The notes: generated by a model from the letters alone, not told the origin. A stretch of DNA of 64,000 nucleotides from Escherichia coli (GCA_902499925.1 GCA_902499925.1_4130.1), one strand, 5' to 3'; counted from the stretch's first letter, positions 33,439 to 48,190 are shown. Numbers and translations: made by a program.

Positions 33439-33445
33439 ATCTTTT

Positions 33446-34888: not shown

Positions 34889-34902
34889 TTTAGTTTATCC
34901 TA

Positions 34903-34928: not shown

Positions 34929-34950
34929 GTGTTGTTAGTACTGCAAGTTA

Positions 34951-35346
34951 TTAGATAACCTGGCGGCGTTTACTGTATACTGTTACACGATTACCCTTAC
35001 GGTCGTGTCGGATCTCTTTCTGGTTGCGAATCAGTTCACTTGGACGCTTAAGGTTTGCCAGGTGATCCGCGTGAGTCCAAGCGGTATGGTTTACCTGTAC
35101 TTTGATATCAGAACCAGCGATAAACTCATCTTGTGCGTTAAGTACTGCCGCCAGATCTTCCGCTCGTTTTAGTTCTGCTGCTGTTAGTACTGGCTCAGGT
35201 GAATTCACAATATCAGAGATCTCTTTGAACTGTACGGCCCAACGTTGGCCTTTCGGTGCATCTTTGCCCATGTCTTTAAATGCTGCTCCTTCCTCGCGTG
35301 CAACAATACGGGCAGCTTCACGGGTAGCGTAGAATTTAGTAATCAT
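34951..35346 (-). CDS. Hypothetical protein (paralog of 47602..47865)
   Basis: Shares 'YFATREAARI...FKDMG' and 'DRKGNRVTVY' with 47602..47865; start at MITKFYATRE after AGGA. Confidence 0.65.
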   Translation of the reverse strand: MITKFYATREAARIVAREEGAAFKDMGKDAPKGQRWAVQFKEISDIVNSPEPVLTAAELKRAEDLAAVLNAQDEFIAGSDIKVQVNHTAWTHADHLANLKRPSELIRNQKEIRHDRKGNRVTVYSKRRQVI

Positions 35347-35441
35347 GGTATACATCCTATTAGTTAAGTTAGTACTACAAGTTAGAGTCTATTATAAAGT
35401 ACTATCTGGGCAATGTCAAATAGTACTTTAAATGGATTCTA

Positions 35442-35765
35442 TTACATGTCTTTCTTACGTTTTACATCGTAGTAGCGAACTGTTATTTCTTTGTTAATCT
35501 CTTTTTCGATGTGGTGAATAACTTTTTCTTTCGGGTTGAAACCTATAACGGTTTCTTTAATGATCTCCAAACCAGTGTATTCGCCTTGTGTGCCGTAACC
35601 GTATGTAAAGGTTTCATGTCCCAGGTCTTCCCAGCGGTCGCCAATTAACGCAGACACGTAGCAAGAGTGGTAAGTATTGCCGTGTGAATCAGTCCACCGA
35701 TTAACTTTAATGTCAAAGGAGGTTACAATTTTCAATTCTACTTTCTGGGCAAGGATCATAGCCAT
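35442..35765 (-). CDS. Hypothetical protein (paralog of 42290..42613)
   Basis: Shares 'RWTDSHGNTYHSC.VS' and 'FTYGYG' with 42290..42613. Confidence 0.7.
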   Translation of the reverse strand: MAMILAQKVELKIVTSFDIKVNRWTDSHGNTYHSCYVSALIGDRWEDLGHETFTYGYGTQGEYTGLEIIKETVIGFNPKEKVIHHIEKEINKEITVRYYDVKRKKDM

Positions 35766-35852
35766 TTTTATTTCTCTCTTTTAGTTAGGAGGGGAACCAT
35801 TCCCCTCACTTGATGTAAACTATTATACAGTACTAAGATACTTTGTCAATAC

Positions 35853-36035
35853 TTATTTTTTGGAAAGTTTACGCATTAATTCTACGCTTTCTTGTGAACG
35901 TTTTGCTACCTGGCAAGCTGCATGGACAGTAAACATTTTTGTATAGTCTGACGCTTTGCCACCGAACCGAGCGGCACGTTCACGGGCACTTGGAACTAAT
36001 ACTATTTCTTTCTTGCAGATAGTGCACTTAGCCAT
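35853..36035 (-). CDS. Small Cys-rich (zinc-ribbon-like) protein
   Basis: MAKCTICKK...HAACQ; start set 45 nt inside track ORF. Confidence 0.55.
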   Translation of the reverse strand: MAKCTICKKEIVLVPSARERAARFGGKASDYTKMFTVHAACQVAKRSQESVELMRKLSKK

Positions 36036-36123
36036 TTTTATTTCTCTCTCTTTGTTAGGAGGGGAACCGTTTCCCCTCACTCGATGTAAACTATTATACA
36101 GTACTAAGATACTTTGTCAATAC

Positions 36124-36399
36124 TTAATTATTGTAAATGTCGTGAATAGTGATAAAGTTTTTACGACCGTAAACCTGCAAATCAATATCAATGTAGTGCT
36201 TATCTAGTACATCCTCGACGCTTAACGCGGTGTCGTGGATATCTTCGTAGAATTGAGGATCTACAATCTTGCTTAAGTCATCCGGCGTTAACTTATCGTT
36301 AAGCCATTGAACCGCCTGGATATCTGCTTCACGTTTCCAGTCTTCCAGGTTAGTAGTCAGTACTTGTTCGATTTCGTTAGCTGTCAGTAGAATCCGCAT
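36124..36399 (-). CDS. Hypothetical protein
   Basis: 91-aa ORF downstream of tandem promoters and structured leader. Confidence 0.65.
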   Translation of the reverse strand: MRILLTANEIEQVLTTNLEDWKREADIQAVQWLNDKLTPDDLSKIVDPQFYEDIHDTALSVEDVLDKHYIDIDLQVYGRKNFITIHDIYNN

Positions 36400-36423
36400 T
36401 TTTATGTTTCCTTATCAGTGGTT

Positions 36424-36600
36424 GATGTAAGTATTATACTCTTTTACTTTCTATTGTCAAACTATTTTATCAGGGGAGGTTTTCTTATGTCTTACTCCTG
36501 GACTACTTAACGGGGTTACTTGTTTCGTTCCCCGTCCTGATGTAAAACATTATACTTGATTCTAAGTACAATGCAAGTACTTTTTTAAAAATAGTTTTCA
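36424..36600 (-). promoter_or_regulatory. Tandem promoters flanking a ~70-nt conserved structured leader element
   Basis: Two TTGACA/TTGCAT-N16-17-TATAAT promoters; between them CAGGACGGGGAACGAAAC...CCTCCCCTG, repeated at ~46925-46998. Confidence 0.5.
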
Positions 36601-36614
36601 GTACTAGCCACCAG

Positions 36615-36706
36615 CATATAATAGATACATTTATGCACCCTGTGGGCTGATTTGTTTCTATGCGTATATAATAGCAAAGGGACTGACCGGAGTCAATCCC
36701 TTTTTC
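36615..36706. repeat. Copy C of ~90-bp intergenic repeat
   Basis: TATAATAGATACATTTATGCACCCTGTGGGCT...AAAGGGACTGACCGGAGTCAATCCCTTTTT. Confidence 0.6.
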
Positions 36707-36714
36707 AATTATTT

Positions 36715-36864
36715 TTAAACTTCTTTCGGGTTGCGATAGGTGATAGCGTTCGGGTACATTTGTTTAATGTTATTCCATGCCTGGTTAACATTGTAACCAC
36801 TTGAGCGAATCAGTTGGTTACTACCGACACCTTGAAACACTACTTCGAATAAGAATTCTTTCAT
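36715..36864 (-). CDS. Small hypothetical protein (~49 aa), not in ORF track
   Basis: ATG overlaps stop of upstream gene (ATGA); translation MKEFLFEVVFQGVGSNQLIRSSGYNVNQAWNN... Confidence 0.45.
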   Translation of the reverse strand: MKEFLFEVVFQGVGSNQLIRSSGYNVNQAWNNIKQMYPNAITYRNPKEV

Positions 36865-37034
36865 GCTTTCACCTCGCGATCTGCTTTACCTTTACGCCAG
36901 GACATTACTAATTGTTCGCGTTGCCATAAGTCGAGTGATACAAAAAGTTTTGCGGTATCACTTTTAGGATACTCGCCATTAGTACCTAACCGATAAAACA
37001 GATCTTTCAGTACTGATAATTCTACTTGGATCAT
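36861..37034 (-). CDS. Hypothetical small protein
   Basis: Start at MIQVELSVLKD; track extension is the translated leader hairpin. Confidence 0.55.
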   Translation of the reverse strand: MIQVELSVLKDLFYRLGTNGEYPKSDTAKLFVSLDLWQREQLVMSWRKGKADREVKA

Positions 37035-37120
37035 TATACTTTCCTCTTTGTTGGGAGGGGAACTATTCCCCTCTCGATATAAAACATTATACACTTTATT
37101 CAGTACTGTGCAAGTACTTT

Positions 37121-37333
37121 TTAATCTTTCAGCCAATGATCCTGAATGAATTTTTCGCCGGAACCTTGCTGCATAGATTGTAACAGACGTTCACGATGAG
37201 CGGCGGCGAATTGCTCAGTACTATGCGTTACACCTGGTTGATATCTGGATTCACCATTGGGGGCGATGTATTGTACATCCCACGGTTTTTCGTTAGTATC
37301 AGACCATTTACGAACGATTAGTTGACCTTGCAT
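37121..37333 (-). CDS. Hypothetical protein
   Basis: 70-aa ORF with promoter and GGGGAGAATCATTTCTCCCC leader. Confidence 0.65.
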   Translation of the reverse strand: MQGQLIVRKWSDTNEKPWDVQYIAPNGESRYQPGVTHSTEQFAAAHRERLLQSMQQGSGEKFIQDHWLKD

Positions 37334-37416
37334 TTTTCTTTCCTCTTAGTGGGGAGAATCATTTCTCCCCTTCATGTAAACTATTATACAGTACTAGATT
37401 ATCTTGTCAATAGTTT

Positions 37417-37740
37417 TTATTCACCTTGTTTGAATTTAGTTTTCTCCATTGATTCCATGATTGCAACCAATACACCGTGGATCTCGCTTAACGCGGAATC
37501 ACTAAAAGCATTAATGAATAGTCGATCATTCTCGCGAATATTTTTAATGTACTTTTCAGCAGTAGTTGCGAATTCATTCAACGGTAGATCAAATGCTTTA
37601 TCCCATGATGGATGGCGTAATTGTAACAGTACTGGATTATCACGATCACCAGGGGAAAACGTACCAGTGATGAAACATACGCCCGGAATACTTTCGAACT
37701 GGCAACGGACTTCCTTTGTGATAGTAGTATGAATGTACAT
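37417..37740 (-). CDS. Hypothetical protein
   Basis: 107-aa ORF; GAGGA SD; likely co-transcribed with 37768..37956. Confidence 0.65.
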   Translation of the reverse strand: MYIHTTITKEVRCQFESIPGVCFITGTFSPGDRDNPVLLQLRHPSWDKAFDLPLNEFATTAEKYIKNIRENDRLFINAFSDSALSEIHGVLVAIMESMEKTKFKQGE

Positions 37741-37767
37741 TTATTGTTATCCTCTATTAAATTAATA

Positions 37768-37956
37768 TTACAGTTTATGAATCAATTCTTTATCTAAGCG
37801 ATAGCGTACATTATTAATGGTAACAGCATTATTTTTAATGCTACGCTGTACAGGTCCACCAGCAATAACAAATGTTGCTTTATTACCCCGAACAATGATA
37901 GCACTTCCAGGATTACCGAAATCATCTTGTACTAAAATACTTGATAAGTTTTCCAT
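37768..37956 (-). CDS. Hypothetical protein
   Basis: 62-aa ORF; promoter TTGCAT...TATAGT and leader hairpin upstream. Confidence 0.6.
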   Translation of the reverse strand: MENLSSILVQDDFGNPGSAIIVRGNKATFVIAGGPVQRSIKNNAVTINNVRYRLDKELIHKL

Positions 37957-38034
37957 TTTTATTTCCTCTTAGTAGGGGAAGATGTTTCCCCTTGATGTAA
38001 GTACTATAACAGTACTGAAAACTAAATGCAAGTA

Positions 38035-38391
38035 CTATGATAAAATCATGATAGGATATTCACTATCGATCAGTACCTCGAATCCGAAACCTTCGTACCA
38101 TTCTTTAAGATTAAAGGCGTTATCTTCTCCCGTATCGCATTCTAAGATGATACAATCTGAATCATCAGCGGCATCGATAAAGGCATTCATTAATTCGTTA
38201 CCTTCACCATTGCCCCGACTATCAGGATCAACATAAAGAGAATCAATAAACGCTACACGGTCATAATCAAGATCCGGTGCAATGATTCCACGTTTAACAA
38301 ACCAGTACTGCAATTGTGCTACTTTGCCCTGTACTTGATAGCCAGTGATCTCGCCATTGTCAGTAGTACGCGTGATATGTTGTATTCCCAT
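38035..38391 (-). CDS. Putative GNAT-family N-acetyltransferase-like protein
   Basis: 'IDSLYVDPDSRGNGEGNELMNAF' resembles acetyl-CoA-binding motif A; TTGACA-N16-TATAAT upstream. Confidence 0.55.
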   Translation of the reverse strand: MGIQHITRTTDNGEITGYQVQGKVAQLQYWFVKRGIIAPDLDYDRVAFIDSLYVDPDSRGNGEGNELMNAFIDAADDSDCIILECDTGEDNAFNLKEWYEGFGFEVLIDSEYPIMILS

Positions 38392-38455
38392 GATTACTAT
38401 CCTCAGTTAAGATATAAAACATTATACACTATCTTTCAGTACTGTCAATTACTTT

Positions 38456-38713
38456 TTATCTCATAGATCTATGCCAACAATTACGCGGGGGACGTTTAAA
38501 AGTACTATCATGATCCTCCTGGCAAGTAATGCAGTACATGCACCCTATAACGGCCTGGCGTCGATTCTCAGGGATTTTATCGCCGCAGTCGAGGCAATGT
38601 ACTAGTGATTCTCTTTGTGCGTTAATTTGCTTTCTAGCGTGGTTGACGGCGGCCTGAATCACTGCGTTGATCTCGTCTTGTTCGGCCCCGTCTTTCGCGT
38701 ATCCTACTGCCAT
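38456..38713 (-). CDS. Putative DksA/TraR-type C4 zinc-finger protein
   Basis: 'HCLDCGDKIPENRRQAVIGCMYCITCQ' gives CxxC-N17-CxxC spacing. Confidence 0.55.
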   Translation of the reverse strand: MAVGYAKDGAEQDEINAVIQAAVNHARKQINAQRESLVHCLDCGDKIPENRRQAVIGCMYCITCQEDHDSTFKRPPRNCWHRSMR

Positions 38714-39042
38714 TATTTTAACCTCATTATAAAAATACTATAGTACTGTAATGCTACAATAATACTACTAGTGTTTATCTTATTCAAACCATATGATACT
38801 ACATATCCATCAGCATTACCACGGATAGTAACGCCTTTGTACTGTCTATATAAATTCAACTGCGTATATTGCCTTTGATCAAGAATTGATCAGAATTATA
38901 CGCCTTATGCTAAATTAATCCAGTACTTTTTTGATCATTTATTGATCGATATTATATAGTTACATTTGTGCACCCTATGGGTTAGTGACGTTCTCGTCTT
39001 GATGTAAGTATTATGCCAGTACTGGAGGATATTGTCAATAGA

Positions 39043-39240
39043 TTATTTTAATTTTTTTCTGTCATTGATTAATGCTTTCAGTACTATACTAATAACTTGC
39101 AATGATTCATCAATGACAATGAAATTATTCTCTTTCATTAGATGATAGTTACCATTGATTGTATATTCTAACGAGTACTGTTTACGTTTAATTTTTGATA
39201 ATGTTTCTATTTGTTTTTGTACTGATTTCATGCTAATCAT
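39043..39240 (-). CDS. Hypothetical small protein
   Basis: ORF in AT-rich spacer; start taken at first ATG (track begins at TTG). Confidence 0.35.
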   Translation of the reverse strand: MISMKSVQKQIETLSKIKRKQYSLEYTINGNYHLMKENNFIVIDESLQVISIVLKALINDRKKLK

Positions 39241-39313
39241 TGTCAAACGTCCTGTAACGCATTCTAACGAGATAAACGGTTTAGTACTGGCATTGTATAG
39301 GGTAAATGATTAA

Positions 39314-39339
39314 AGCCCACCAGCGTTAACCAGTGGGCT
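39314..39339 (-). terminator. Rho-independent terminator
   Basis: AGCCCAC-N12-GTGGGCT hairpin followed by T-rich tract on minus strand. Confidence 0.55.
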
Positions 39340-39345
39340 ATAATC

Positions 39346-39489
39346 TTACATCTTGCGGATAATCTTAACAGTATCTTTCACCGATTTACCGTTTTGCTGA
39401 CATTGCTCGATCATCGCGTATTGTTCTGCGGTCAGATCCTCGCCAGTTTTTGCCAGTACTGCGTCGATGAATGAATCCAGTGCGATCAT
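39346..39489 (-). CDS. Small hypothetical protein (~47 aa), not in ORF track
   Basis: Own TTGACA-N16-TATAAT promoter; translation MIALDSFIDAVLAKTGEDLTAEQYAMIEQCQQNGK...; terminator downstream. Confidence 0.45.
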   Translation of the reverse strand: MIALDSFIDAVLAKTGEDLTAEQYAMIEQCQQNGKSVKDTVKIIRKM

Positions 39490-39588
39490 TTTGTTTCTCT
39501 CTTAGGTTAAGTTAACTACTGTTTATAAAACTTATTATACAGTACTATCAAACGTTGTCAATATCTTTAATAGTACTGGTAATATATT

Positions 39589-39768
39589 TTAGCGGTAATC
39601 GTCGTATGCTTTATTCACCTGGCGAATGTAACTTTCAAAGGCTTCGTCTACCGTTTCATACTCCCGAACATAATCACCATAGGAAACTACATACATACCT
39701 TTTTGATCTTCAAACGTCATGATGATAGAATCCAGGCCGATGATTTCAGTTTTTGCGATGATAGCCAT
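39589..39768 (-). CDS. Hypothetical small protein
   Basis: Start at MAIIAKTEII after AAGGA; upstream TTGACA-N17-CATAAT. Confidence 0.55.
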   Translation of the reverse strand: MAIIAKTEIIGLDSIIMTFEDQKGMYVVSYGDYVREYETVDEAFESYIRQVNKAYDDYR

Positions 39769-39850
39769 TTTTAATTCCTTAGTAGTGTAGTTGATAAAAG
39801 TTATTATGCCAGTACTATCAATCAGTGTCAATAGTACTGTGATAATATTT

Positions 39851-40063
39851 TTAGTTAATGATAGTCAGTGTAAAATTGTAATCCCCTGCCTGGTATAGTA
39901 CTTTGTCGCCGAACGTTCCAACACGTTTCATATTGCAATAGATACCCATAACACTTTTTACATCTTTGATATTCCGAACGCCAGTAATATCCTTGTTTAA
40001 ATGATCGTGATCAGAAAATAAAACTTGTTTTGCATTTTTCAGTACAGTGCAGATATTAGCCAT
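39851..40063 (-). CDS. Hypothetical protein
   Basis: 70-aa ORF; promoter and GGGGAGAATCATTTCTCCCC leader. Confidence 0.6.
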   Translation of the reverse strand: MANICTVLKNAKQVLFSDHDHLNKDITGVRNIKDVKSVMGIYCNMKRVGTFGDKVLYQAGDYNFTLTIIN

Positions 40064-40157
40064 TTTGTTTTCTCTCTGTTAGTGGGGAGAATCATTTCTC
40101 CCCTTGATGTAAACTATTATACAGTACTATAATCTATTGTCAAACTATTTTTTTATA

Positions 40158-40499
40158 TTATTCGAAATCTTCTGGACCGGACTGATAATCATCTTCACCG
40201 TATGCACTTTCTAACCGCTCACCAGTGTGATCATCAGTTAGTGAGTCATCCTCATAGTTCACGTCTACGCCAGTGATGTAAAACTGGCTATCGTCTGGAT
40301 CATTGAAATTAATTTTTTGGATGTTTACAATAACTGTATTGATACCCAGGACACCGCCATCAGCCGTTACAAAGTACTGATAGTTTTCGCAACCGCCTGA
40401 ATTGAAACCGTAATTAATTTCGGCCCGACCATCATTTAAACGCAGTGCCTGGGCGATGATTTCATTTTCAAAGTTAGATTGAGCAATTGAGATAGTCAT
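40158..40499 (-). CDS. Hypothetical acidic protein
   Basis: 113-aa ORF with promoter TTGCAA-N16-TATAAT and GGGGAAACGGTTTCCCC leader. Confidence 0.65.
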   Translation of the reverse strand: MTISIAQSNFENEIIAQALRLNDGRAEINYGFNSGGCENYQYFVTADGGVLGINTVIVNIQKINFNDPDDSQFYITGVDVNYEDDSLTDDHTGERLESAYGEDDYQSGPEDFE

Positions 40500-40623
40500 G
40501 ATTTGTTTCCTTATTACCAGGGGAAACCGTTTCCCCTTTCGATGTAAAACATTATACGCTTATTGAGATAGTTTGCAAGTACTTTCTACAAATACTTTTA
40601 AAATAGTTTTCAGTACTCAAACA

Positions 40624-40727
40624 TTATATAATAGATACACTTATGCACCCTGTGGGCTAGTGAGCTATCTCTCAATGAATATATAATAGCAAAATGGCTG
40701 ACCGGAGTCAACCACTTTTTTCATTTA
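40624..40727. repeat. Copy D of ~90-bp intergenic repeat
   Basis: TATAATAGATACACTTATGCACCCTGTGGGCTAGTGAGC...AAAATGGCTGACCGGAGTCAACCACTTTTTT. Confidence 0.6.
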
Positions 40728-40864
40728 TTTTTAGCTTTTAGAATCGCCGCCTTTCGCGTCATGCCTTGCTTGATGTATTCCTGTACTTTCGCTTTACGTG
40801 CATTCGCTTTATTTGCTTTCGTAAACGCCGAACAACTTTTATAATTTAAGCCTGTTGGATTCAT
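40721..40864 (-). CDS. Small basic hypothetical protein (~47 aa), not in ORF track
   Basis: Start directly after stop of upstream ORF (TAAATG); Lys-rich; followed by terminator hairpin. Confidence 0.4.
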   Translation of the reverse strand: MNPTGLNYKSCSAFTKANKANARKAKVQEYIKQGMTRKAAILKAKNK

Positions 40865-40954
40865 TTAAATCACCATAAAGAATAGATAGGTTACTAACAA
40901 TGCCGCGATCAATGCACCGACCAGGGCCGAACTATAGTAAGCTAATGATTTCAT
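40865..40954 (-). CDS. Small hydrophobic peptide (~29 aa), not in ORF track
   Basis: ATGA overlap with upstream gene; MKSLAYYSSALVGALIAALLVTYLFFMVI is a single predicted TM helix. Confidence 0.4.
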   Translation of the reverse strand: MKSLAYYSSALVGALIAALLVTYLFFMVI

Positions 40955-41103
40955 TTTTTAGCCTGAAAGTAATGTTTAATTTGAGCGGCGGTCAGTGCAC
41001 AATTACGCAGGAAGTTTTCTGTATAACTGCGGCGAGTACTGAAAGAGAATTGACCTTTGCCGTTACCGATAGTAACATCAAACCGAGCGTTGTATTGTTT
41101 CAT
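40951..41103 (-). CDS. Hypothetical small protein
   Basis: Start at MKQYNARF after GGAG; track extension is promoter/hairpin. Confidence 0.5.
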   Translation of the reverse strand: MKQYNARFDVTIGNGKGQFSFSTRRSYTENFLRNCALTAAQIKHYFQAKK

Positions 41104-41184
41104 TTTGTTTCTCCTGTTATTGGGGAGAATCATTTCTCCCCTTCATGTAAAACATTATACAGTACTAAAAACTAATTGCAAGTA

Positions 41185-41331
41185 CTATTTTTTAGATTTA
41201 CGCAAACTTTCTACCATCTCAGGAGTAAGGCCAGGCGGGTAGAAAACCACTTCATCAACGAAACGTAAAGGGAATACCCCATCTAAGGTTGAACGTGCTT
41301 TCTTGTTAGTACTCTTTTTTGATGCTTTCAT
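41185..41331 (-). CDS. Small basic hypothetical protein (~48 aa), not in ORF track
   Basis: Own promoter (TTGCAA-N16-TATAAT), GGGGAGAA leader and TAAGGAA SD; MKASKKSTNKKARSTLDGVFPLRF... Confidence 0.5.
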   Translation of the reverse strand: MKASKKSTNKKARSTLDGVFPLRFVDEVVFYPPGLTPEMVESLRKSKK

Positions 41332-41400
41332 TTCATATTCCTTAATTAGTGGGGAGAATCATTTCTCCCCTTCATGTAAAACATTATACGCGTTTAAAAA

Positions 41401-41610: not shown

Positions 41611-41615
41611 ATTAA

Positions 41616-41888
41616 TTAACCTTTTAAGTACTGGCTTAAGTAGTCTTGTTGATCTTCGGTGATTGCAGCCATCTTCCCTAGTACTGGATTGATGATATAA
41701 TCCCCTGTAACGTCCTGTAACGCATTCTCAGGCGGTTTAACGGCTGGGGTAGCCATAGCCATTGCCTGGACTTGTTCGACGCTGTAACGCTCATAAAGGC
41801 GGCATTCTTCCGGTGTTAACATAGCATCAGTACGCTTCATCGGTTTAATGATGCTTTCGATCTCATTCAGTACTTGATTAACGTTCAT
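41616..41888 (-). CDS. Hypothetical protein
   Basis: 90-aa ORF. Confidence 0.65.
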   Translation of the reverse strand: MNVNQVLNEIESIIKPMKRTDAMLTPEECRLYERYSVEQVQAMAMATPAVKPPENALQDVTGDYIINPVLGKMAAITEDQQDYLSQYLKG

Positions 41889-41939
41889 GGTATAATCCCC
41901 AATATAAGCGGCCTGAATCGACCGCTAACGATGTTTTGA

Positions 41940-42209
41940 TTAATAGGTGTATGGTTGACGCTCAAACAATGATTGCACGTTGTACGCCCCGCTTATGGGC
42001 TTCGCTGGTAAATCAATTTTATATTGTTCACGCTTAAAGATAATAAAACGGCAATTGTTTTTAACATCAAAATTGATTGAACGTTCCAGGAGTTTTCCAT
42101 CGTGCACAAATACAAGATAACCGCTTGCTACTTGTTTTGTAGTACTGGTTGCAACCATAGACCGACGAACATGTGTACCTGCATCGATTAAAGTACTGAT
42201 ATTTTTCAT
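41940..42209 (-). CDS. Hypothetical protein
   Basis: 89-aa ORF. Confidence 0.65.
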   Translation of the reverse strand: MKNISTLIDAGTHVRRSMVATSTTKQVASGYLVFVHDGKLLERSINFDVKNNCRFIIFKREQYKIDLPAKPISGAYNVQSLFERQPYTY

Positions 42210-42289
42210 TATACGATCCTCTTAAGTTAATTTAATTTCTTTCCCCTATGCAGACACTATATCAAAGTATCTGCATAAAGTAAAGCTAA

Positions 42290-42613
42290 TTAAAGATCTT
42301 TTTTGCGTTTAACATTCTGTACAGTACAATGCAACGGGATATTAAGATCATTGCACAAACGAGTAAGGGAGGTTTCATCAGTATTAAGCCCGTCTACTGA
42401 TTCCTTTAAGAGAGATAACGCCGTTTGTTGATATGCATCTTCATAGCCATAAGTAAATGATTCAACCGCCAGATCATTCAAACCGTTATCCAGTTCAACG
42501 CTTACATGACAAGAATGATAAGTATTGCCATATGAATCAGTCCAACGTTTACCGTCAACATTGATTGCACGGATTGCAGCCAGGGAAACGGTGTTAATGA
42601 TAGTTTTAGCCAT
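42290..42613 (-). CDS. Hypothetical protein (paralog of 35442..35765)
   Basis: Shares 'RWTDSYGNTYHSCHVS' and 'FTYGYE'. Confidence 0.7.
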   Translation of the reverse strand: MAKTIINTVSLAAIRAINVDGKRWTDSYGNTYHSCHVSVELDNGLNDLAVESFTYGYEDAYQQTALSLLKESVDGLNTDETSLTRLCNDLNIPLHCTVQNVKRKKDL

Positions 42614-42702
42614 TTTTGTATTCCTTAAATTAATATGTTGTCTTGATAAAATCTATTATGCCAGTACTATCAAACTATGTCAATAGTACTGTGATAATAT
42701 TT

Positions 42703-42846
42703 TTACTTACTTTTTTCTTTCTTTATTACTTCCACCTGGTCGGCCCATTCTTTACCCCATACTTGTAAATTATAATGGTACTGGCAAAGAGCAACGCCCC
42801 GCTTTAAACCCGTAATAGATTTCTGACCACATTGACAAGTTTTCAT
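42703..42846 (-). CDS. Small Cys-containing hypothetical protein (~47 aa), not in ORF track
   Basis: Own promoter and GGGGAGAACCATTTCTCCCC leader; MKTCQCGQKSITGLKRGVALCQYHYNLQVW... Confidence 0.45.
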   Translation of the reverse strand: MKTCQCGQKSITGLKRGVALCQYHYNLQVWGKEWADQVEVIKKEKSK

Positions 42847-42932
42847 TTTAGTTTCCTTGTAGTGGGGAGAACCATTTCTCCCCTTGATGTAATGTATTAT
42901 ACTTTATTCGATTTACTTTGCAAGTACTTTTT

Positions 42933-43160
42933 TTAATTTAATTCATCAAGGCAAAGGATACGCTCAACGCCCAAATCAGTTAAACTAATCGACGGCACTT
43001 GATAGGTTTCAATGTATGCTACACTTGCCCACTGACCGAACTCATTAACGGCCCAGGTATTCATTGCATTTTGCAATTCCGCACCTTCCTTGTTGGTAAT
43101 GACTGCAACTACTTGTTCGTTGCCAGTAGTACCAGATACGCGAGTAATGATAATAGCCAT
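42933..43160 (-). CDS. Hypothetical protein
   Basis: Start at MAIIITRVSG; track extension is promoter/hairpin. Confidence 0.65.
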   Translation of the reverse strand: MAIIITRVSGTTGNEQVVAVITNKEGAELQNAMNTWAVNEFGQWASVAYIETYQVPSISLTDLGVERILCLDELN

Positions 43161-43397
43161 TGTTTTGATTCCTTTGATTTGGAAGGAGAACCGTTTCCCC
43201 CTCTCGATGTAAAACATTATACGCTAATCTCTTAATCGTGCAAGTACTTTTTATTACTTTTTGCAAAATACTTTAAACGCTCTCAATCGCATTACAACGA
43301 CCTTAACGCCACCAGCTAGGGCAATTGCATCAGATAATCAGTTTAATGCGTTAGAATCGTTTCTAGGCGGTGCTGGTGGCCTGGTAAACGATAAACA

Positions 43398-43425
43398 CAA
43401 AAAAGCCCACCATTTAAGGTGGGCT
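43398..43425 (-). terminator. Rho-independent terminator
   Basis: AGCCCACC-ttaaat-GGTGGGCT followed by TTTTTT on minus strand, just 3' of gene 43447..43929. Confidence 0.65.
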
Positions 43426-43446
43426 AGTGATTCAGTACTTTAATTG

Positions 43447-43929
43447 TTATGCTTCAACTTTGCGATGAGCTTCGATCCATTCCTCGCGAGTCATACCGCT
43501 GGAGTTAATCGCATCCAGTACTACAGCAATGCAGTTACCACGCACCGGAATCAGATATTCTTCCCCGTTGTCCAGTACTACCGCTACGCGTTCCTGAATC
43601 CATTTTTTTGCTTTTACTTCTGGCTTATCTTCCCCGTACTTAACCGCCAGGGCTTTTTGTGCCATCTCTGTAACTACTTCCAGATCCAGCCCAACTACTG
43701 CCGCCTGAATACTTTCAATTGTTGCTTGCAGTTCTGCTTCACGGGCCGCTTTCGCCGCTTCAATTTCTGCCGCTTTATTTGCTTGTAGTTCTTTCGCAGT
43801 ACTGTACGCGATGTTAAAATTATTGCGTACCGCTTTCATGGTATCGTTGTCCAGTTCAGCCAGGATCTCAGCCGCGACGTTAGTTTCATTTGCTACCAGT
43901 GCTTTGATGAATGATTTTACATTAGCCAT
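43447..43929 (-). CDS. Hypothetical protein with Ala/Glu-rich predicted coiled-coil region
   Basis: Start at MANVKSFIK; central 'AKELQANKAAEIEAAKAAREAELQATIESIQAA'. Confidence 0.7.
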   Translation of the reverse strand: MANVKSFIKALVANETNVAAEILAELDNDTMKAVRNNFNIAYSTAKELQANKAAEIEAAKAAREAELQATIESIQAAVVGLDLEVVTEMAQKALAVKYGEDKPEVKAKKWIQERVAVVLDNGEEYLIPVRGNCIAVVLDAINSSGMTREEWIEAHRKVEA

Positions 43930-44134
43930 TTTATAAATCCTCAATTAAAGTTTAGTTTACGTTTATTAGTGTATCAAAGTTTTCTCGACGTGTCCAGTTT
44001 TTCGTTCGACTTACTGGCGGTCTACTTAGTGCTCCCCGTCTTGATGTAATACATTCTACGCCTTTTTGCGGTAATGTCAACTACTTTTTTTAAAACTATT
44101 TTCAAAGTATCTCAGTACTACGATACTATAAAAA

Positions 44135-44161
44135 CAAAAAAGCCCACTGTATAAGTGGGCT
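44135..44161 (-). terminator. Rho-independent terminator
   Basis: AGCCCAC-ttataca-GTGGGCT followed by T-run on minus strand, 3' of gene 44179..44478. Confidence 0.6.
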
Positions 44162-44178
44162 AGTGATTCAGTACTAGA

Positions 44179-44478
44179 TTATAAACAGTTAATTACTCCG
44201 GTGTGCGTTACTTTCTCAGTATCCATTACAGTGACCGAACCGCGTTTAGTACTTGCATCGTAATAAATTGTCGTGCTACCTTTTTCGTCTTCTTCATGGA
44301 ACGGGCCGCTTTTAAATGCTTCTGGCTGGATCTCTAAATCCTTTAAAACAATCTCGCCAGTACTTTCATTGGTCATCGCTACAGTGCACTGAATGAATTT
44401 TTCATTACTTACATCTAACGACGCATTAACAGCGAAAGAGGAAACAGATAAAGCCAGGGCGATGATTGCAATTTTCAT
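44179..44478 (-). CDS. Putative secreted/periplasmic protein
   Basis: N-terminus MKIAIIALALSVSSFAVNA-SLDV looks like a signal peptide. Confidence 0.7.
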   Translation of the reverse strand: MKIAIIALALSVSSFAVNASLDVSNEKFIQCTVAMTNESTGEIVLKDLEIQPEAFKSGPFHEEDEKGSTTIYYDASTKRGSVTVMDTEKVTHTGVINCL

Positions 44479-44562
44479 TTGATTATCCTTAGTTACCAGG
44501 GGGAACCGCTCCCCCTTGCGATGTAAAATATTATACAGTTCTAAAAACTATTATCAAGTACT

Positions 44563-44799
44563 TTATGATTTTTTATAAAACATTTCAGCAGTGATATTTT
44601 TACCCGTTGGCTGTACTTTATCCAGGATTTTTTGATGTCCAGGCCGACCAAATGAATATGATCCGTAAACCGTAAACCAGTAGTTACCCTCAGTGTTTAC
44701 ATGTACAGCACAATAAGGAACACCACGCGATTCATCACTAGTAAAGTGTGATACCGTTCCCGTTACATTCGCAGACGTTGATTTGATTTGTTCGAGCAT
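44563..44799 (-). CDS. Hypothetical protein
   Basis: 78-aa ORF with leader hairpin GGGGAACCACTCCCC. Confidence 0.6.
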   Translation of the reverse strand: MLEQIKSTSANVTGTVSHFTSDESRGVPYCAVHVNTEGNYWFTVYGSYSFGRPGHQKILDKVQPTGKNITAEMFYKKS

Positions 44800-44906
44800 T
44801 TTCTTATTCCTTAGTTACCAGGGGAACCACTCCCCTATGCAAAACATTATACGCGTTTAAAAACTAATTGCAAGTATTTTAATAAAAAGTATTTGAAAAA
44901 TAGTTG

Positions 44907-44935
44907 TTGACAAGTGCATCCAGTACTGGCATAAT
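44907..44935 (+). promoter_or_regulatory. Plus-strand sigma70-like promoter (TTGACA-N17-CATAAT) with no downstream ORF
   Basis: Hexamers read on plus strand; followed by CCCACCGGGTGC motif and a hairpin. Confidence 0.5.
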
Positions 44936-44941
44936 TACTAC

Positions 44942-45045
44942 ATAAAGACAAAACAGTCTCTAACCCACCGGGTGCCGAGATCCGTCTATTAAATGATTCA
45001 GTACTGAAAAAGTAACGGGGAGTTATTATCTCCCCGCGTTGTTAT
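44942..45045 (+). ncRNA. Candidate small RNA (promoter-to-terminator unit ~100 nt)
   Basis: Begins after promoter at 44907-44935; contains CCCACCGGGTGC; ends at CGGGGAG-ttattat-CTCCCCG hairpin followed by T-rich tract. Confidence 0.35.
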
Positions 45046-45263
45046 TTGGTAAGGTATAAACAGAAGTCACCTTTATTTGCTACGCCGCCAGTGTAACGCG
45101 ATGAATAGTTAGAAACGTCCTGGACTTCTGCTATTACCAGTGTATCATCATTCATTTCGTCGCAGAAGCAAACGGCTGGATCTTGTACGCCGATTTTGTC
45201 GGCATGTTCCCGCATAGATTTAACCAGTGCTTCCAGTTGGGAAAGAGTAGTGATATTAGCCAT
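45042..45263 (-). CDS. Hypothetical protein
   Basis: Start at MANITTLSQ; track extension is leader. Confidence 0.65.
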   Translation of the reverse strand: MANITTLSQLEALVKSMREHADKIGVQDPAVCFCDEMNDDTLVIAEVQDVSNYSSRYTGGVANKGDFCLYLTK

Positions 45264-45349
45264 TTTATTTTCCTCATTACCAGGGAGAACCATTTCTCCC
45301 TTTGATGTAAACCATTATACAGTACTGAAAACTAATTGCAAGTACTTTT

Positions 45350-45553
45350 TTAATTTAATTGCTTTAAAACATACTCAAAGACACCACGCACATCATTGAT
45401 CATCGCCTGGCGGTTAGCAGGTAACGCATCAGGATCGCCACTATCCCAGGCATTGATAAAACTCCCCAAATCATGATAGATTTTATTCTGTAAGCCGATT
45501 AACTGCAATTCTTTTTCTTCAAGCTCTTTGATACGTTCAATTAAATCACTCAT
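45350..45553 (-). CDS. Hypothetical protein
   Basis: Start at MSDLIERIKE after GAGGA. Confidence 0.6.
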   Translation of the reverse strand: MSDLIERIKELEEKELQLIGLQNKIYHDLGSFINAWDSGDPDALPANRQAMINDVRGVFEYVLKQLN

Positions 45554-45570
45554 TAGATAATCCTCAGTAC

Positions 45571-45855
45571 TTAACTGTAAGATCCGCAACGGTCGCAGTA
45601 GTGCCCGTCCTCGTCATCGTCAACGAATTGACCGACGAAATGATCTACTTTCGCTTTCAGGTTATTATAATCGTTTTCTACTTCCGTTAAACGCTTCTGG
45701 TAGTATTCCAGTGCTTTAAGATATGCCGCATCAGCAGTTTTCTCCTGCATAGCTAAATTCATGCCACGCGTTTCATCGTACAGCCAAAAACCATCGGTGC
45801 ACTCACTGATTGACAATGATTTACTTAACACATTGTACTTTATTACTTTACTCAT
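45571..45855 (-). CDS. Hypothetical protein with C-terminal CxxC
   Basis: Start at MSKVIKYNVL after GAGGA; C-terminal 'HYCDRCGSYS'. Confidence 0.65.
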   Translation of the reverse strand: MSKVIKYNVLSKSLSISECTDGFWLYDETRGMNLAMQEKTADAAYLKALEYYQKRLTEVENDYNNLKAKVDHFVGQFVDDDEDGHYCDRCGSYS

Positions 45856-45911
45856 TAGATAATCCTCAGTAAAGGCGGGAACCATTCCCGCCATTGATTC
45901 AGTACTGAATG

Positions 45912-46151
45912 TTACATTCCAACCATTGCGGCACGGATCGCAGTAGTGCTATACTTGAATCCGTCCGGCGTTGTAGTAGTACCGTTGGCTTTTAATCTGC
46001 GGTACATACATTGGGCCGCAATATCTTTAGTTTTACATTGTGCGATGCAACTTTGAGCAAGCCGATATAATGACTCACCGTTATTAATCCACAATGAAAC
46101 ATTCCAATGAGTTTTGTTTTTGTGCCCGTTGTAAGTTTTAGTACTAGCCAT
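45912..46151 (-). CDS. Hypothetical protein (paralog of 47951..48190)
   Basis: Shares 'GHKNKTHWNVSLWINN' and identical C-terminus 'TPDGFKYSTTAIRAAMVGM'. Confidence 0.7.
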   Translation of the reverse strand: MASTKTYNGHKNKTHWNVSLWINNGESLYRLAQSCIAQCKTKDIAAQCMYRRLKANGTTTTPDGFKYSTTAIRAAMVGM

Positions 46152-46241
46152 TTTTAAATCCTCGTTTGAGCGGGGAACCATTCCCCGCCTCGATATAAAG
46201 TATTATACGCTTTTAAACTTAGTTTGCAAGTACTTTTTGAA

Positions 46242-46853
46242 TTAATATTCGATTGATTCTACTACGCCATCAATAACATTGAATTGATATTCGTTACCCT
46301 CAATCAGTGCCGTAATGTTTTCAGTACTGAATTGATCCTCATATGCATTCTCTAAATCACGGTACAACTTGCGGGATAATTCACGAATAGTTTCAGTGAG
46401 TAGTTCCTCAAGCTCATTAACTAACGTTTCTTGTTTTGCGGTTAAATCAGTGTAAGCCGATTCAATGTACCCGCTTACAGTGTTTTCGTGTGAGTAGCGA
46501 GATTGAGAACGCTTTACACTCATCGCCAAATCATCTTCATTCAGCAGGTGACGGATTGAGCGATACTTAGTTAATGCTCTTACCTTGCGTAAAAACTTCA
46601 CTGCGTCAACGTGGTCAGTACTGATTGATGCACCGTCACCCTGGGACCAAAAACCACTGAATTGTATTTCAGCGTCATTAATGCCATATTCCGGTAATAC
46701 TGTTTCTTTATAGTATTCGATCACTGACTCAGAAAAGAAATCATCCCCGCTTGAACGTTCACGTTCCCGAACCAGTTCGATAGCTGACGTTTTTTGTTCT
46801 GCGTTCAATTCAGAAAAATCCATAACATAAGTAGTAGTAGTGATAGTTTTCAT
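46242..46853 (-). CDS. Hypothetical acidic protein
   Basis: 203-aa ORF; tandem promoters plus structured leader upstream. Confidence 0.7.
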   Translation of the reverse strand: MKTITTTTYVMDFSELNAEQKTSAIELVRERERSSGDDFFSESVIEYYKETVLPEYGINDAEIQFSGFWSQGDGASISTDHVDAVKFLRKVRALTKYRSIRHLLNEDDLAMSVKRSQSRYSHENTVSGYIESAYTDLTAKQETLVNELEELLTETIRELSRKLYRDLENAYEDQFSTENITALIEGNEYQFNVIDGVVESIEY

Positions 46854-46879
46854 TTTGTAACCCTCATTCAGTAGTTGAT

Positions 46880-47035
46880 GTAAGTATTATACGCTTTTAA
46901 AAACATTTGTCAAACTATTTTATCAGGGGAGTTTTTCGTGTGCCTTACTCCTGGGCTACTTAACGGGGAGTTACTTATTTCGTTCCCCGTCCTGATGTAA
47001 AACATTATACGCCTTTAAACATAGTTTGCAAGTAC
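46880..47035 (-). promoter_or_regulatory. Tandem promoters flanking second copy of ~70-nt structured leader
   Basis: Same arrangement and near-identical element as 36424-36600. Confidence 0.5.
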
Positions 47036-47078
47036 TTTTTAAAAATAGTTTTCAGTACTGAATATTAAAAAAAAAGTA

Positions 47079-47107
47079 TTGACAGCATTATCAAGTACTG
47101 GTATAAT
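47079..47107 (+). promoter_or_regulatory. Plus-strand consensus promoter (TTGACA-N17-TATAAT)
   Basis: Followed at ~20 nt by CCCACCGGGTGC; no plus ORF downstream. Confidence 0.5.
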
Positions 47108-47281
47108 ATATCCCATGACAACAGCTAACCCACCGGGTGCACAATTGTAACTATACTAAACTAATTTTTCTATAGATACACTCCCGCACCCTATGGGCTA
47201 CGGCTTATCTGCCAATGAATACATTATGCCAGTACTGACAAAATAAGTCAATACCGGCAATTGTAAAGATTTGTAAACTGC

Positions 47282-47512
47282 TTATACTGCAATCGCGTCC
47301 AGGCTATAATAATAATAAGTGCCGTATTGGTGTACTTTATTACCTTTTATTTCAGTACTGAATGAATCCGAACGATTGGCATATGATGTTAATTTAAAGT
47401 ACTTTGATTTGCTGATACGTTGCCATACACCGCAGATCCGCTGTAAGTAAGTAGTTTTATTAGTGGTAGTATCTTTTACGGTTTTAACTTCAGTCATATA
47501 CATATTGGTCAT
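47282..47512 (-). CDS. Hypothetical protein
   Basis: 76-aa ORF; AAGGAG upstream. Confidence 0.55.
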   Translation of the reverse strand: MTNMYMTEVKTVKDTTTNKTTYLQRICGVWQRISKSKYFKLTSYANRSDSFSTEIKGNKVHQYGTYYYYSLDAIAV

Positions 47513-47601
47513 TTTTTTTTACTCCTTGCTTTAGTGGGGAACTATTCCCCACCTGATATAAAGTATTATACGCTTTTAAACTTAGTTTGCAAGTACTTTT
47601 T

Positions 47602-47865
47602 TTATAGTACTGCTATCTTTTTAGTACGGTACACGGTAACACGATTCCCCTTACGGTCGAGCTTTATTTCTACCACTCGACGCGATACACTAGCAGGACT
47701 TTTCAACGCCGCTAACCAGTACTGTAATGATCTGGCGGTACTACGCTTTACAATGGCCCAACGTTTACCACTTTCCGATTGTACGCCCATATCTTTAAAC
47801 GTTGCCCCGTCCTGGCGTGCGGCGATCCGAGCTTGTTCACGCGTCGCAAAATACTTAATATTCAT
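47602..47865 (-). CDS. Hypothetical protein (paralog of 34951..35346)
   Basis: Start at MNIKYFATREQARIAAR. Confidence 0.65.
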   Translation of the reverse strand: MNIKYFATREQARIAARQDGATFKDMGVQSESGKRWAIVKRSTARSLQYWLAALKSPASVSRRVVEIKLDRKGNRVTVYRTKKIAVL

Positions 47866-47950
47866 GCTGTTGCCCTTATCGTTGGTGTATGAATAAAACA
47901 CTATTATAAAGTACTATCGCAAAAAATGATAGTACTTTAAATAAATTCTA

Positions 47951-48190
47951 TTACATTCCAACCATCGCCGCACGGATCGCAGTAGTGCTATATTTGAATC
48001 CGTCCGGTGTTTTATCTTGTCCAGTCTGTTCTAAAAATAACATCATATGACGGGCCGCATCATTGCGATTAGTGCTATCGTTAATAAAGTCCTGGGCCAA
48101 CCGGTATAATGATTCATCGTTATTAATCCAAAGGCTTACATTCCAATGAGTTTTGTTTTTGTGACCTAAGAACATTTTTGATTTAGCCAT
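47951..48190 (-). CDS. Hypothetical protein (paralog of 45912..46151)
   Basis: 79-aa ORF sharing N- and C-terminal blocks with 45912..46151. Confidence 0.7.
   Translation of the reverse strand: MAKSKMFLGHKNKTHWNVSLWINNDESLYRLAQDFINDSTNRNDAARHMMLFLEQTGQDKTPDGFKYSTTAIRAAMVGM

Follow-up and report, generated by a model that had tools for sequence, protein, structure and literature searches.

Two copies each of three families of small phage proteins, here designated P1, P2 and P3, lie dispersed in an early, sigma70-promoted gene block of an Asteriusvirus (121Q-like jumbo coliphage), the source of the 64,000-nucleotide stretch of DNA analysed here (the window). Amino acid identities of 35-66% between the copies, with pairs 1 and 2 at 35-38%, point clearly to an old split within each family, and we consider it probable (about 70%) that the present gene positions result from cassette-level homologous recombination and not from recent copying of units. 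Crossovers would use the approximately 30 near-identical promoter/leader elements together with the conserved 5′ and 3′ gene ends, so that slots in the block would be filled, emptied and refilled with divergent family members, some of the incoming alleles coming from unrelated coliphages such as Phapecoctavirus.

Three protein families in an early terminal-repeat block

The initial annotation had placed three paralog pairs here, and all six ORFs were found where it had placed them, on the minus strand (Table 1). By BLASTP, P1a and P1b share 44 of 124 residues across a 45-aa gap (E 3e-19), P2a and P2b share 41 of 107 without a gap (E 2e-28) and P3a and P3b share 52 of 79 (E 9e-38), the similarity being significant in all three cases. 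The motifs quoted in the annotation are present, except that the first reads FYATRE in one of the two copies but YFATRE in its partner. All-vs-all BLASTP of 290 window ORFs (E<1e-4) gave no further paralog pairs between 30 and 50 kb; tandem paralog arrays are abundant in the remainder of the window.

Table 1. Positions of the paired genes, their upstream units and the enclosing block in the window.
Feature	Position	Strand	Evidence or remark
P1a, 131 aa, phrog_8127, long form with central segment	34951..35346	-	phrog_8127 E 2e-35
P1a upstream unit: ATGTAATAGAAT junction 35436-35447, promoter 35419-35391, unstructured leader	35347..35447	-	
P2a, 107 aa, phrog_6246	35442..35765	-	phrog_6246 E 2e-36
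P2a promoter (35849-35822) and hairpin leader	35766..35863	-	
P2b, 107 aa, phrog_6246, in variable slot	42290..42613	-	BLASTP, PHROG, E9.1 comparison
P2b promoter (42683-42655, TTGACA-17-CATAAT with TG) and unstructured leader	42614..42697	-	
P3a, 79 aa, DUF7249 / phrog_871, accessory cassette	45912..46151	-	Not at this position in fEgEco12 and 121Q
P3a promoter (46229-46202) and hairpin leader	46152..46243	-	
Promoter and hairpin leader of unrelated gene 47282..47512	47513..47606	-	-35, spacer and -10 same as in pair 3
P1b, 87 aa, phrog_8127, short form without central ~45 aa	47602..47865	-	BLASTP, PHROG
P1b upstream unit: same junction and -10 as P1a, unstructured leader	47866..47956	-	
P3b, 79 aa, DUF7249 / phrog_871	47951..48190	-	92% identical to Phapecoctavirus nepoznato protein
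P3b promoter (48268-48241) and hairpin leader	48191..48282	-	
Direct-terminal-repeat equivalent block, holding all six paired genes	29400..50390 (approximate)	.	Matches 20,993-bp fEgEco12 repeat

The early block is the counterpart of the fEgEco12 direct terminal repeat, which was delimited experimentally (PMC13070987): megablast aligned it collinearly with fEgEco12 positions 2792-16191 (77% coverage, 96.6% identity), with gene order kept. Its outer edge was set by coordinate arithmetic on this match; its inner boundary, where unique sequence begins, lies at window position ~50,390 and is approximate because of indels. The megablast matches of the block also include Phapecoctavirus and Justusliebigvirus records. 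The CMSTMSU genome was left out of all gene-order arguments since its record is unverified and many of its genes have split or duplicated matches consistent with frameshifts.

The minus strand between 30 and 50 kb carries 31 promoter/leader units. Thirteen promoters in the region match the sigma70 consensus at 12/12 positions, and looser matches number 99 against 67.6 +/- 8.9 expected. Where a leader hairpin is present (it is missing in three of the six genes), it sits downstream of the -10 box and ahead of the Shine-Dalgarno sequence, which places it in the mRNA 5′ leader; lacking a U tract, it does not represent a terminator in front of the promoter, and the leader hairpins of P2a, P3a and P3b were absent from the list returned by a terminator scan. 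A CAGTACTG palindrome is heavily over-represented.

All six proteins are full-length members of their families (PHROG 8127, 6246 and 871 for pairs 1, 2 and 3; E 8e-26 to 5e-41). P1 was found in Rak2-like jumbo phages only, P1a being 63% identical to EJP2_516 and 41% to RaK2 ORF353. The P2 family, with over 1,200 clusters, has no Pfam family, and no fused Pfam domain was seen in ten multi-domain P2 relatives scanned; in the C-terminal alignment KKDL-stop is the family end, with the sole exception of P2a, which ends in KKDM. We also considered RaK2 ORF352 as a hidden P2 relative and rejected it (hhalign probability 0.1%). P3a and P3b score 52.2 bits (E 1.3e-13) and 45.0 bits (E 2.2e-11) against DUF7249 (PF23907), for which the Pfam gathering cut-off is a whole-protein score of 27 bits. 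They are plain members of DUF7249 and PHROG 871 that share the invariant GHKN..WNVSLWINN and TPDG..Y...IRAAMV with 57 other members, as well as the VGM-stop that ends the family, and their homologues in a large database carry PF23907. DUF7249 is present in many phage genera and goes unmentioned in any paper that we found.

With regard to function, labels of the DUF or 'unknown function' kind were all that Pfam, NCBIfam and PHROGs yielded, PDB sequence profiles gave no match, Foldseek against BFVD returned uncharacterised viral proteins only and the whole window had no Rfam match. Judging from position and promoters, P1, P2 and P3 are most likely candidate early, dispensable host-takeover or anti-defence factors, the early expression class of the block genes itself being deduced from promoter type and position.

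Slot alleles and gene adjacency in related phages

Both copies of each pair are more than 85-90% conserved in other Asteriusvirus genomes, and therefore no split is recent; each copy also has separate orthologues in other phages. Comparison with related phages, as the initial annotation had advised, revealed that equivalent slots hold very divergent alleles or ORFs of unrelated sequence, with allele identity falling to 33-37% in phages whose flanks are 92-99% identical. The divergent Asteriusvirus EJP2 carries two P3 genes, two P1 genes and one P2 gene: a P3b-like allele (84%) occupies the P3a slot, a third allele type the P3b slot, and a P2b-type promoter directly fronts the homologue of g41940. 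Its P1b slot holds EJP2_516, in which the central segment is present. The ~45-aa length difference in pair 1, previously read as an insertion of ~50 aa in P1a, is more likely a deletion in P1b.

Breakpoints were inspected in six relatives, in a region where cassettes fill most of the intergenic space, and in this small sample they fall at cassettes or conserved gene ends in the comparisons with fEgEco12, 121Q, JNE01, E9.1 and EJP2. Against fEgEco12, homology stops at the P3a ATG and restarts at the 5′ border of the following promoter; the P3a promoter and leader drive an unrelated 54-aa ORF there instead of P3a. Against 121Q, one breakpoint lies at the promoter's 5′ border and the other at the hairpin that follows the P3a stop codon. 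The P2b slot of E9.1, with flanks of 92-99% nucleotide identity, contains an allele with 83% identity to a Phapecoctavirus protein and only 37% to P2b, and the crossovers map to the leader and to the codons for the conserved DVKRKKDL.

The E9.1 allele is also what would be expected if the pair members were xenologues, each imported independently from other phages, with no duplication in the Asteriusvirus lineage. P3b in particular is closer to proteins of Phapecoctavirus, Vequintavirinae and T7-like phages (83-92%) than to P3a (66%), its identity to the nepoznato homologue being 92% at the amino acid and 89% at the nucleotide level; P3a and P3b also fall in different clades of an NJ tree, although this tree of short proteins is weakly resolved, and the Phapecoctavirus and Justusliebigvirus matches of the block point the same way. 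However, the confinement of P1 to Rak2-like jumbo phages leaves no outside donor evident, both P1 copies have a lineage-specific upstream unit in common, and export from Asteriusvirus would explain the P3b similarities equally well. Trees of such short proteins (79-131 aa) do not tell an ancient duplication within the genome and later export apart from independent acquisition, and we regard independent import of every copy as possible but doubtful. Transfer between Asteriusvirus and Phapecoctavirus could have occurred in either direction.

The adjacency of the families could alternatively reflect a functional module, in which P1 works with the P2 or P3 encoded just upstream and selection for dyads keeps them together. 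P2 followed by P1 and P3 followed by P1 are indeed adjacent in the window and in fEgEco12, 121Q, JNE01, E9.1 and EJP2; P2 and P3 adjoin (about 90 nt) in nepoznato and in six of eight coliphage records of ~130-150 kb with both families listed, these being Phapecoctavirus-like, with the genus confirmed for nepoznato only. Yet RaK2 has P1 without P2 or P3 nearby, neither a metagenomic P2 locus nor the P3 gene of a 38.5-kb phage contig has a partner family within 4 kb, P2b and P3a are solitary in the window, and inherited synteny with one copying event accounts for the adjacency equally well. A universal P1/P2/P3 module is rejected as a general rule by the distant P2 and P3 loci and the lone RaK2 P1, and we find selection for dyads improbable as the explanation of gene order.

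Upstream units and the proposed duplication of expression units

According to the initial annotation, promoters and leaders were duplicated along with the genes, indicating duplication of whole expression units. The three pairs differ in this respect, and the claim fits pair 1 only. The upstream stretch common to P1a and P1b runs from ATGTAATAGAAT, which is the last codon and stop of the preceding gene in each case, to GATAGTACTTTATAATAG at the -10 box and occurs nowhere else in the window, exact 12-mer and 18-mer matches being found upstream of these two genes only; the same P3/P1 junction was also found in EJP2. The P1a promoter is a 12/12 match (TTGACA-17-TATAAT) followed by a leader of -2.9 kcal/mol, whereas in P1b the -35 box is degraded and the spacer is 3 nt shorter. 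A single recombination event of the kind proposed above probably copied a P1 gene, its promoter and the terminal codon plus stop of the upstream P3 gene as one piece; the copied unit would have landed beside a P2 gene, creating the P2a-P1a dyad, and in the other P1 copy the central ~45 codons and the -35 box would have disappeared afterwards.

The promoters of pair 2 do not conform to the claim. They are of different classes, with a hairpin leader in P2a and an unstructured one in P2b, and their mutual similarity ranks 27-30 of 30; both show 93% identity to promoters of other, unrelated genes, namely the neighbour 35853..36035 for P2a and 39589..39768 for P2b. In pair 3 the promoters are 93% identical and each other's best match, and similarity at the DNA level spans from about -90 to the stop codon. 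This case is nevertheless ambiguous, since an unrelated gene is served by the same promoter: that of 47282..47512 is 88-91% identical to both pair 3 promoters, and both pair 3 leaders have their nearest counterpart in its leader.

A recent in-genome segmental duplication that copied each gene along with its promoter and leader would account for the specific stretch of pair 1, from the preceding stop codon to the -10 box, and for the mutually best promoters and extended similarity of pair 3. It is difficult to reconcile with identities as low as those observed, with dS of about 0.9 and dN of 0.33 in the closest pair, with the conservation of both copies across other Asteriusvirus genomes, and with pair 2 promoters whose similarity ranks near the bottom for the block and a pair 3 promoter that serves unrelated ORFs. 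Recent unit duplication is therefore largely refuted for pairs 2 and 3, and for the block as a whole we consider it quite unlikely. Between P3a and P3b, 4 of 14 synonymous sites differ in the last 20 codons against 11 of 15 mid-gene, which could point to gene conversion, but the counts are too small to support such a claim. Finally, a chance or compositional artefact of short AT-rich ORFs, for which nothing speaks beyond ORF length, has a negligible probability and is refuted by E-values of 3e-19 to 9e-38 under composition-based statistics, by the common PHROG family of both members of each pair (E<1e-25) and by the hundreds to over a thousand homologues elsewhere.

Comparison with known cassette systems

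In themselves these paralogues are unremarkable; we value them as markers of a mosaic of exchangeable single-gene cassettes in the terminal-repeat early block of 121Q-like phages, with some block alleles common to unrelated coliphages of 150 kb. For annotators, 'paralogue' need not mean 'local duplication', and DUF7249, PHROG 6246 and PHROG 8127 are widespread small early-protein candidates for host-takeover and anti-defence screens. More speculatively, and with odds clearly against it, the terminal-repeat block might be a platform for gene-cassette exchange with unrelated coliphages (Phapecoctavirus, Vequintavirinae and RaK2-like), with promoter and 5′-leader hairpin units as dedicated crossover sites, possibly together with the CAGTACTG palindrome. 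If so, P1, P2 and P3 would be swapped between co-infecting phages, in a PeSL-like manner with another cassette layout, across subfamilies.

Phapecoctavirus (phi92/nepoznato-like) has homologues of P2, P3, g45571 and g42933 and the same promoter and hairpin-leader layout; it differs in gene order (P2, then P3, then a g42933-like gene), in the absence of P1, in a genome of about 150 kb and in belonging to another subfamily. The Rak2-like jumbo phages CBB and fEgEco12 share with the window a direct terminal repeat of ~21 kb, densely filled with short uncharacterised genes behind RpoD-type promoters with UP-like elements. Phage T5 likewise has its pre-early region in the terminal repeat, although its two-step DNA entry is not known for Rak2-like jumbo phages. 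In CBB, 22 ORFs were reported with in-genome paralogues (PMC5259590); the CBB and fEgEco12 papers do not deal with these three families, with slot and allele exchange or with cassette breakpoints (PMC5259590, PMC13070987), the latter makes no mention of promoters, and we found no paper describing promoter cassettes in Asteriusvirus.

The closest known parallel is with PeSL cassettes and the modular shuffling of T4-type phages (Arbiol et al. 2010, PMC2839356; Comeau et al. 2014, PMC4122927). The repeated strong early promoters of PeSL are present here, as are many near-identical sigma70-like promoter and GGGG...CCCC stem-loop units beside small uncharacterised genes in a hyperplastic region, and insertions, deletions and replacements between close relatives end in these units. 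However, the G/C-rich stem-loop of the T4-type cassette precedes the promoter and terminates the upstream gene, whereas in Asteriusvirus the hairpin lies in the 5′ leader and conserved gene ends also serve as crossover sites. Small circular DNAs from the recombination of neighbouring cassettes are a feature of the T4-type system. Asteriusvirus is not T4-like, and similar cassettes occur in Phapecoctavirus and RaK2. The mosaic described here would extend promoter-cassette shuffling, known from T4-like phages, to a further group of phages with a cassette layout unlike theirs.

Three families of small genes in a terminal repeat

The six genes form real pairs. Their members, whether paralogues or xenologues, are old and belong to three families of small, putatively early proteins (P1, P2 and P3, with copies a and b) encoded in a phage terminal repeat. 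All six named ORFs are present, the 30-50 kb portion of the window being read on the minus strand, and the proposal of the initial annotation that this promoter-rich block holds three paralog pairs was borne out by BLASTP (see the table). At E<1e-4, no further paralog pair was seen between 30 and 50 kb when 290 window ORFs were compared all against all by BLASTP. Outside the block, big tandem arrays of paralogs, with dozens of significant pairs, occupy 4-15, 22-29.6, 50.6-55 and 55-64 kb and encode proteins of about 120-160, 70, 60 and 380 aa, respectively, the last array being on the plus strand.

By megablast, the block was assigned to Asteriusvirus (121Q/PBECO4/phAPEC6-like jumbo coliphages); its top matches were 94-97% identical with a query coverage of at most 79% for every one, so that gene content differs among close relatives. 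The block homologues in the relative fEgEco12 are g01-g55, at the left genome end. The direct terminal repeat of this phage measures 20,993 bp and was defined via PhageTerm with confirming restriction digests (PMC13070987). Since fEgEco12 350619-355631 matches window 48500-53500 in one continuous stretch, the beginning of the right-hand copy of the repeat (fEgEco12 353741) falls at about window 50390, and the sequence from about 29.4 to 50.4 kb is thus terminal repeat, with all six genes within it. This accounts for the four loci per family in those deposited genomes that include both copies of the repeat; P1 has two loci in most of the Asteriusvirus records listed and four where both copies were deposited. 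Imperfect 8-bp tandem repeats (49479-49630, consensus about CGTCTAGC), some 0.8 kb inside this inferred outer end, may be connected with genome termini or packaging.

The annotatable genes of the block are few (kinase-like, GNAT and DksA/TraR-type, see the table) and, judging by their homologues, would fit an early host-takeover region. In the Rak2-like phage CBB, the early block is reported to reach into the terminal repeat, with 22 ORFs having in-genome paralogues and with RpoD-type promoters carrying UP-like elements (PMC5259590).

Coordinates of the paralog pairs, annotated genes and repeated elements
Feature	Coordinates	Strand	Details
Pair 1 (P1a/P1b)	34951..35346 / 47602..47865	-	BLASTP 44/124 identical, single 45-residue gap, E 3e-19
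Pair 2 (P2a/P2b)	35442..35765 / 42290..42613	-	BLASTP 41/107 identical, ungapped, E 2e-28
Pair 3 (P3a/P3b)	45912..46151 / 47951..48190	-	BLASTP 52/79 identical, E 9e-38
Serine/threonine protein kinase-like	33446..34030	-	annotation of homologues in relatives
GNAT acetyltransferase	38035..38391	-	annotation of homologues in relatives
DksA/TraR-type zinc-finger protein	38456..38713	-	annotation of homologues in relatives
Motif A(A/G)CCCAYMGGGTGC	31104-31117, 33361-33374, 36635-36648, 38970-38983, 40645-40658, 47186-47199	-	
Motif A(A/G)CCCAYMGGGTGC	44962-44975, 47127-47140, 49278-49291	+	
Hairpin AAAGGGATTGACTCCGGTCAGTCCCTTT	31145-31172, 33407-33434, 36676-36703, 40691-40718	-	
Palindrome CAGTACTG, examples	45900-45907, 47053-47060, 47717-47724, 49826-49859		
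Double-promoter leader, full copies	47031-46886, 36576-36433	-	precede unrelated genes 46242..46853 and 36124..36399
Whole-allele replacement	E9.1 11167-11511 vs nepoznato 2045-2410		83% amino-acid, 77% nucleotide identity

P3 corresponds to Pfam DUF7249 and PHROG 871 (more than 330 clusters) and ranges over Asteriusvirus, Phapecoctavirus, Vequintavirinae-like phages and ~38-45 kb phages of several hosts, its proteins having invariant N- and C-terminal motifs and a variable middle. P2 is PHROG 6246, with 1,268 clusters at E<=0.001 in a profile search and no Pfam family, and P1 (PHROG 8127) is confined to Rak2-like jumbo phages and one 52-kb Klebsiella phage. The length difference in pair 1 had been read as an insertion in P1a; the central segment concerned is present in all P1 family members but P1b, and the difference is therefore more likely a deletion in P1b.

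The splits within all pairs are non-recent. Over the whole gene, P3a and P3b differ by a dS of about 0.9 and a dN of 0.33, with the mid-gene saturated, and P3b differs from a gene of Phapecoctavirus nepoznato by a dS of 0.66 and a dN of 0.04 (92% amino-acid and 89% nucleotide identity). A neighbor-joining tree, weakly resolved because P3 has only 79 aa, placed P3a and P3b in different clades, both with members from other contigs. P2b-type alleles (at least 90%) occur in 27 records, against 37 for the P1a-type gene (at least 60%), and P3a is present in the relative JNE01 and absent at that position from fEgEco12 and 121Q.

Promoter and leader units of the block

The minus strand of the block carries 31 upstream units, each running from an AT-rich element with AGTACT through a -35 box (TTGACA/TTGCAA), a 16-17 nt spacer, a -10 box (TATAAT/CATAAT) and a leader to a Shine-Dalgarno sequence and ATG; perfect 12/12 sigma70 matches in the region number 13, with 12 on this strand. 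The majority of leaders contain a GGGG...CCCC hairpin of 9-10 bp (-14 to -16 kcal/mol), with the Shine-Dalgarno left unpaired, as do those of P3a, P3b and P2a, while P2b, P1a and P1b have unstructured leaders. Since the hairpin lies downstream of the -10 box and has no U tract, it belongs to the 5′ leader rather than acting as a terminator. An equivalent promoter/hairpin-leader layout was found in nepoznato and in Klebsiella phage RaK2.

When every unit was compared against the 30 others, the claim that promoter and leader had been duplicated with each gene stood for pair 1, proved not to be specific for pair 3 and failed for pair 2. The pair 3 promoters are mutual best matches (93%), but both are also 88-91% identical to the promoter of 47282..47512, an unrelated gene with the closest leader, and the spacer ACTAAGTTTAAAAGCG is identical in all three. 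The pair 2 units rank 27-30 of 30 for each other, that of P2a being 93% identical to that of the unrelated neighbour 35853..36035 and the P2b unit 93% identical to that of the unrelated gene 39589..39768. Both pair 1 units lack a hairpin and share the 12-mer ATGTAATAGAAT, which is the final codon and stop of the upstream gene, as well as the 18-mer GATAGTACTTTATAATAG, the two pair 1 sites being the only exact occurrences of either in the window; relative to P1a, the P1b promoter has a degraded -35 box and a spacer short by three bases. Pair 1 alone thus bears the mark of expression-unit copying.

Other repeated elements were seen as well. The motif A(A/G)CCCAYMGGGTGC has nine copies against 0.01 expected, on both strands, each about 25 nt 3′ of a good promoter of the sigma70 type that has no ORF after it and in many cases has an extended -10; 47127(+) and 47186(-) form an overlapping convergent pair. 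These sites look like short non-coding transcription units of one family, and they gave no Rfam match. Four of them have upstream a perfect 12-bp hairpin, AAAGGGATTGACTCCGGTCAGTCCCTTT, around a TTGACT -35 box. The 8-bp palindrome CAGTACTG occurs at 65 sites in the window against about 1 expected, in promoter spacers, beside stop codons and within ORFs (translated F-S-T-E or S-V-L), AGTACT being also found in the element directly 5′ of most -35 boxes; it could be a protein-binding or recombination site. Finally, a promoter followed by a conserved leader of ~80 nt (GGACGGGGAACGAAAYAAGTAAC.CCCGTTAAGTAG.CCAGGAGTAAG...) and a second perfect promoter has two full copies, and 44080-43950 (-) has in common with them only the first promoter and leader start, the second promoter not being seen there. 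It may represent a small RNA or have a regulatory role as a leader.

Breakpoints and probable exchange of alleles among relatives

The window and fEgEco12 are homologous (94%) from 46400 to 46149, where the match breaks off at base three of the P3a start codon ATG; it is back at 98% from 45348, where the following promoter has its 5′ edge. The interval holds P3a and two further genes in the window (about 800 bp), and in fEgEco12 a single unrelated 54-aa ORF behind the same promoter/leader. In the comparison with 121Q, breaks occur at 46238 (promoter 5′ edge) and at about 45891-45910 (hairpin past the P3a stop), and JNE01 lacks 45606-45355, a segment stopping at the next promoter. At the P2b slot, E9.1 shares the promoter with the window up to the leader and again the sequence from the DVKRKKDL codons on downstream, and has in between an allele 83% identical to a nepoznato protein and 37% identical to P2b, which points to genes passing between jumbo phages and coliphages of 150 kb. 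In EJP2, a divergent Asteriusvirus collinear with the window, the homologue of 41940..42209, the next gene after P2b in the window, is placed directly behind a promoter whose -35 box and spacer are those of P2b. Patterns of this kind would be expected if repeated promoter cassettes recombined with one another and conserved gene ends did likewise.

Slots and alleles are likewise uncoupled in EJP2. Its P3b slot holds a P3 of a third type, with 54-60% identity to P3a and to P3b, and its P3a slot a P3b-like allele (84% identical). The P1b slot is occupied by EJP2_516 (125 aa, 63% identical to P1a, central segment present), which has a P1b-like C-terminus, a leader matching P1a and a promoter region matching P1b. 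In the P2a-P1a slot are a P2 with the canonical KKDL-stop and the P1 gene EJP2_016, which has a different promoter and about 35% identity to P1a and P1b. The one P1 of RaK2 has a hairpin leader and includes the central segment; downstream of it are homologues of 34634..34888 and, farther on, the kinase gene, so that it is in the P1a position.

The conserved ends of the families are VGM-stop in P3 and KKDL-stop in P2, with a C-terminus DVKRKKDL in seven of eight aligned P2 members and DVKRKKDM in P2a. The sequence ATG TAA TAGAAT, found after P3b in the window and after P3(515) in EJP2, is also the end of P2a, where the final residue is M against L in the family. We infer that the P2a-P1a junction is the only case of expression-unit copying, this scar at the P2a end giving its direction. 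The copied unit would have comprised the last codon and stop of P3, the promoter, the leader and a P1 gene of the EJP2_516 type, and would have landed adjoining P2a, displacing a P1 of the EJP2_016 type. More generally, the present distribution of pair members probably results from cassette-level recombination.

Linkage of the families and comparison with known phages

The P2-to-P1 and P3-to-P1 dyads were found in every Asteriusvirus genome examined, and P2 is directly adjacent to P3 in nepoznato and in six of the eight ~130-150 kb coliphage records listed for both families, which are Phapecoctavirus-like, the genus being confirmed for nepoznato only. This recurrent adjacency could suggest that P1, P2 and P3 form a functional module; however, partner families are absent from a metagenomic P2 locus, from a P3 locus on a contig of 38.5 kb and from RaK2, and we regard the module as a minority possibility.

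We found in the literature no earlier description of the P1, P2 and P3 families or of such shuffling in Asteriusvirus. The nearest described mechanism is the modular shuffling mediated by promoter-early stem-loop (PeSL) cassettes in T4-like phages (PMC2839356, PMC4122927). Both systems have strong sigma70-type promoters, GGGG...CCCC stem-loops, ORFan-rich hyperplastic regions and breakpoints within cassettes. However, the PeSL stem-loop is a terminator ahead of the promoter, whereas here it is in the mRNA leader, and the phage group is Asteriusvirus instead of the T4-like phages. The three pairs are thus a further instance of an already known type of phage genome plasticity.
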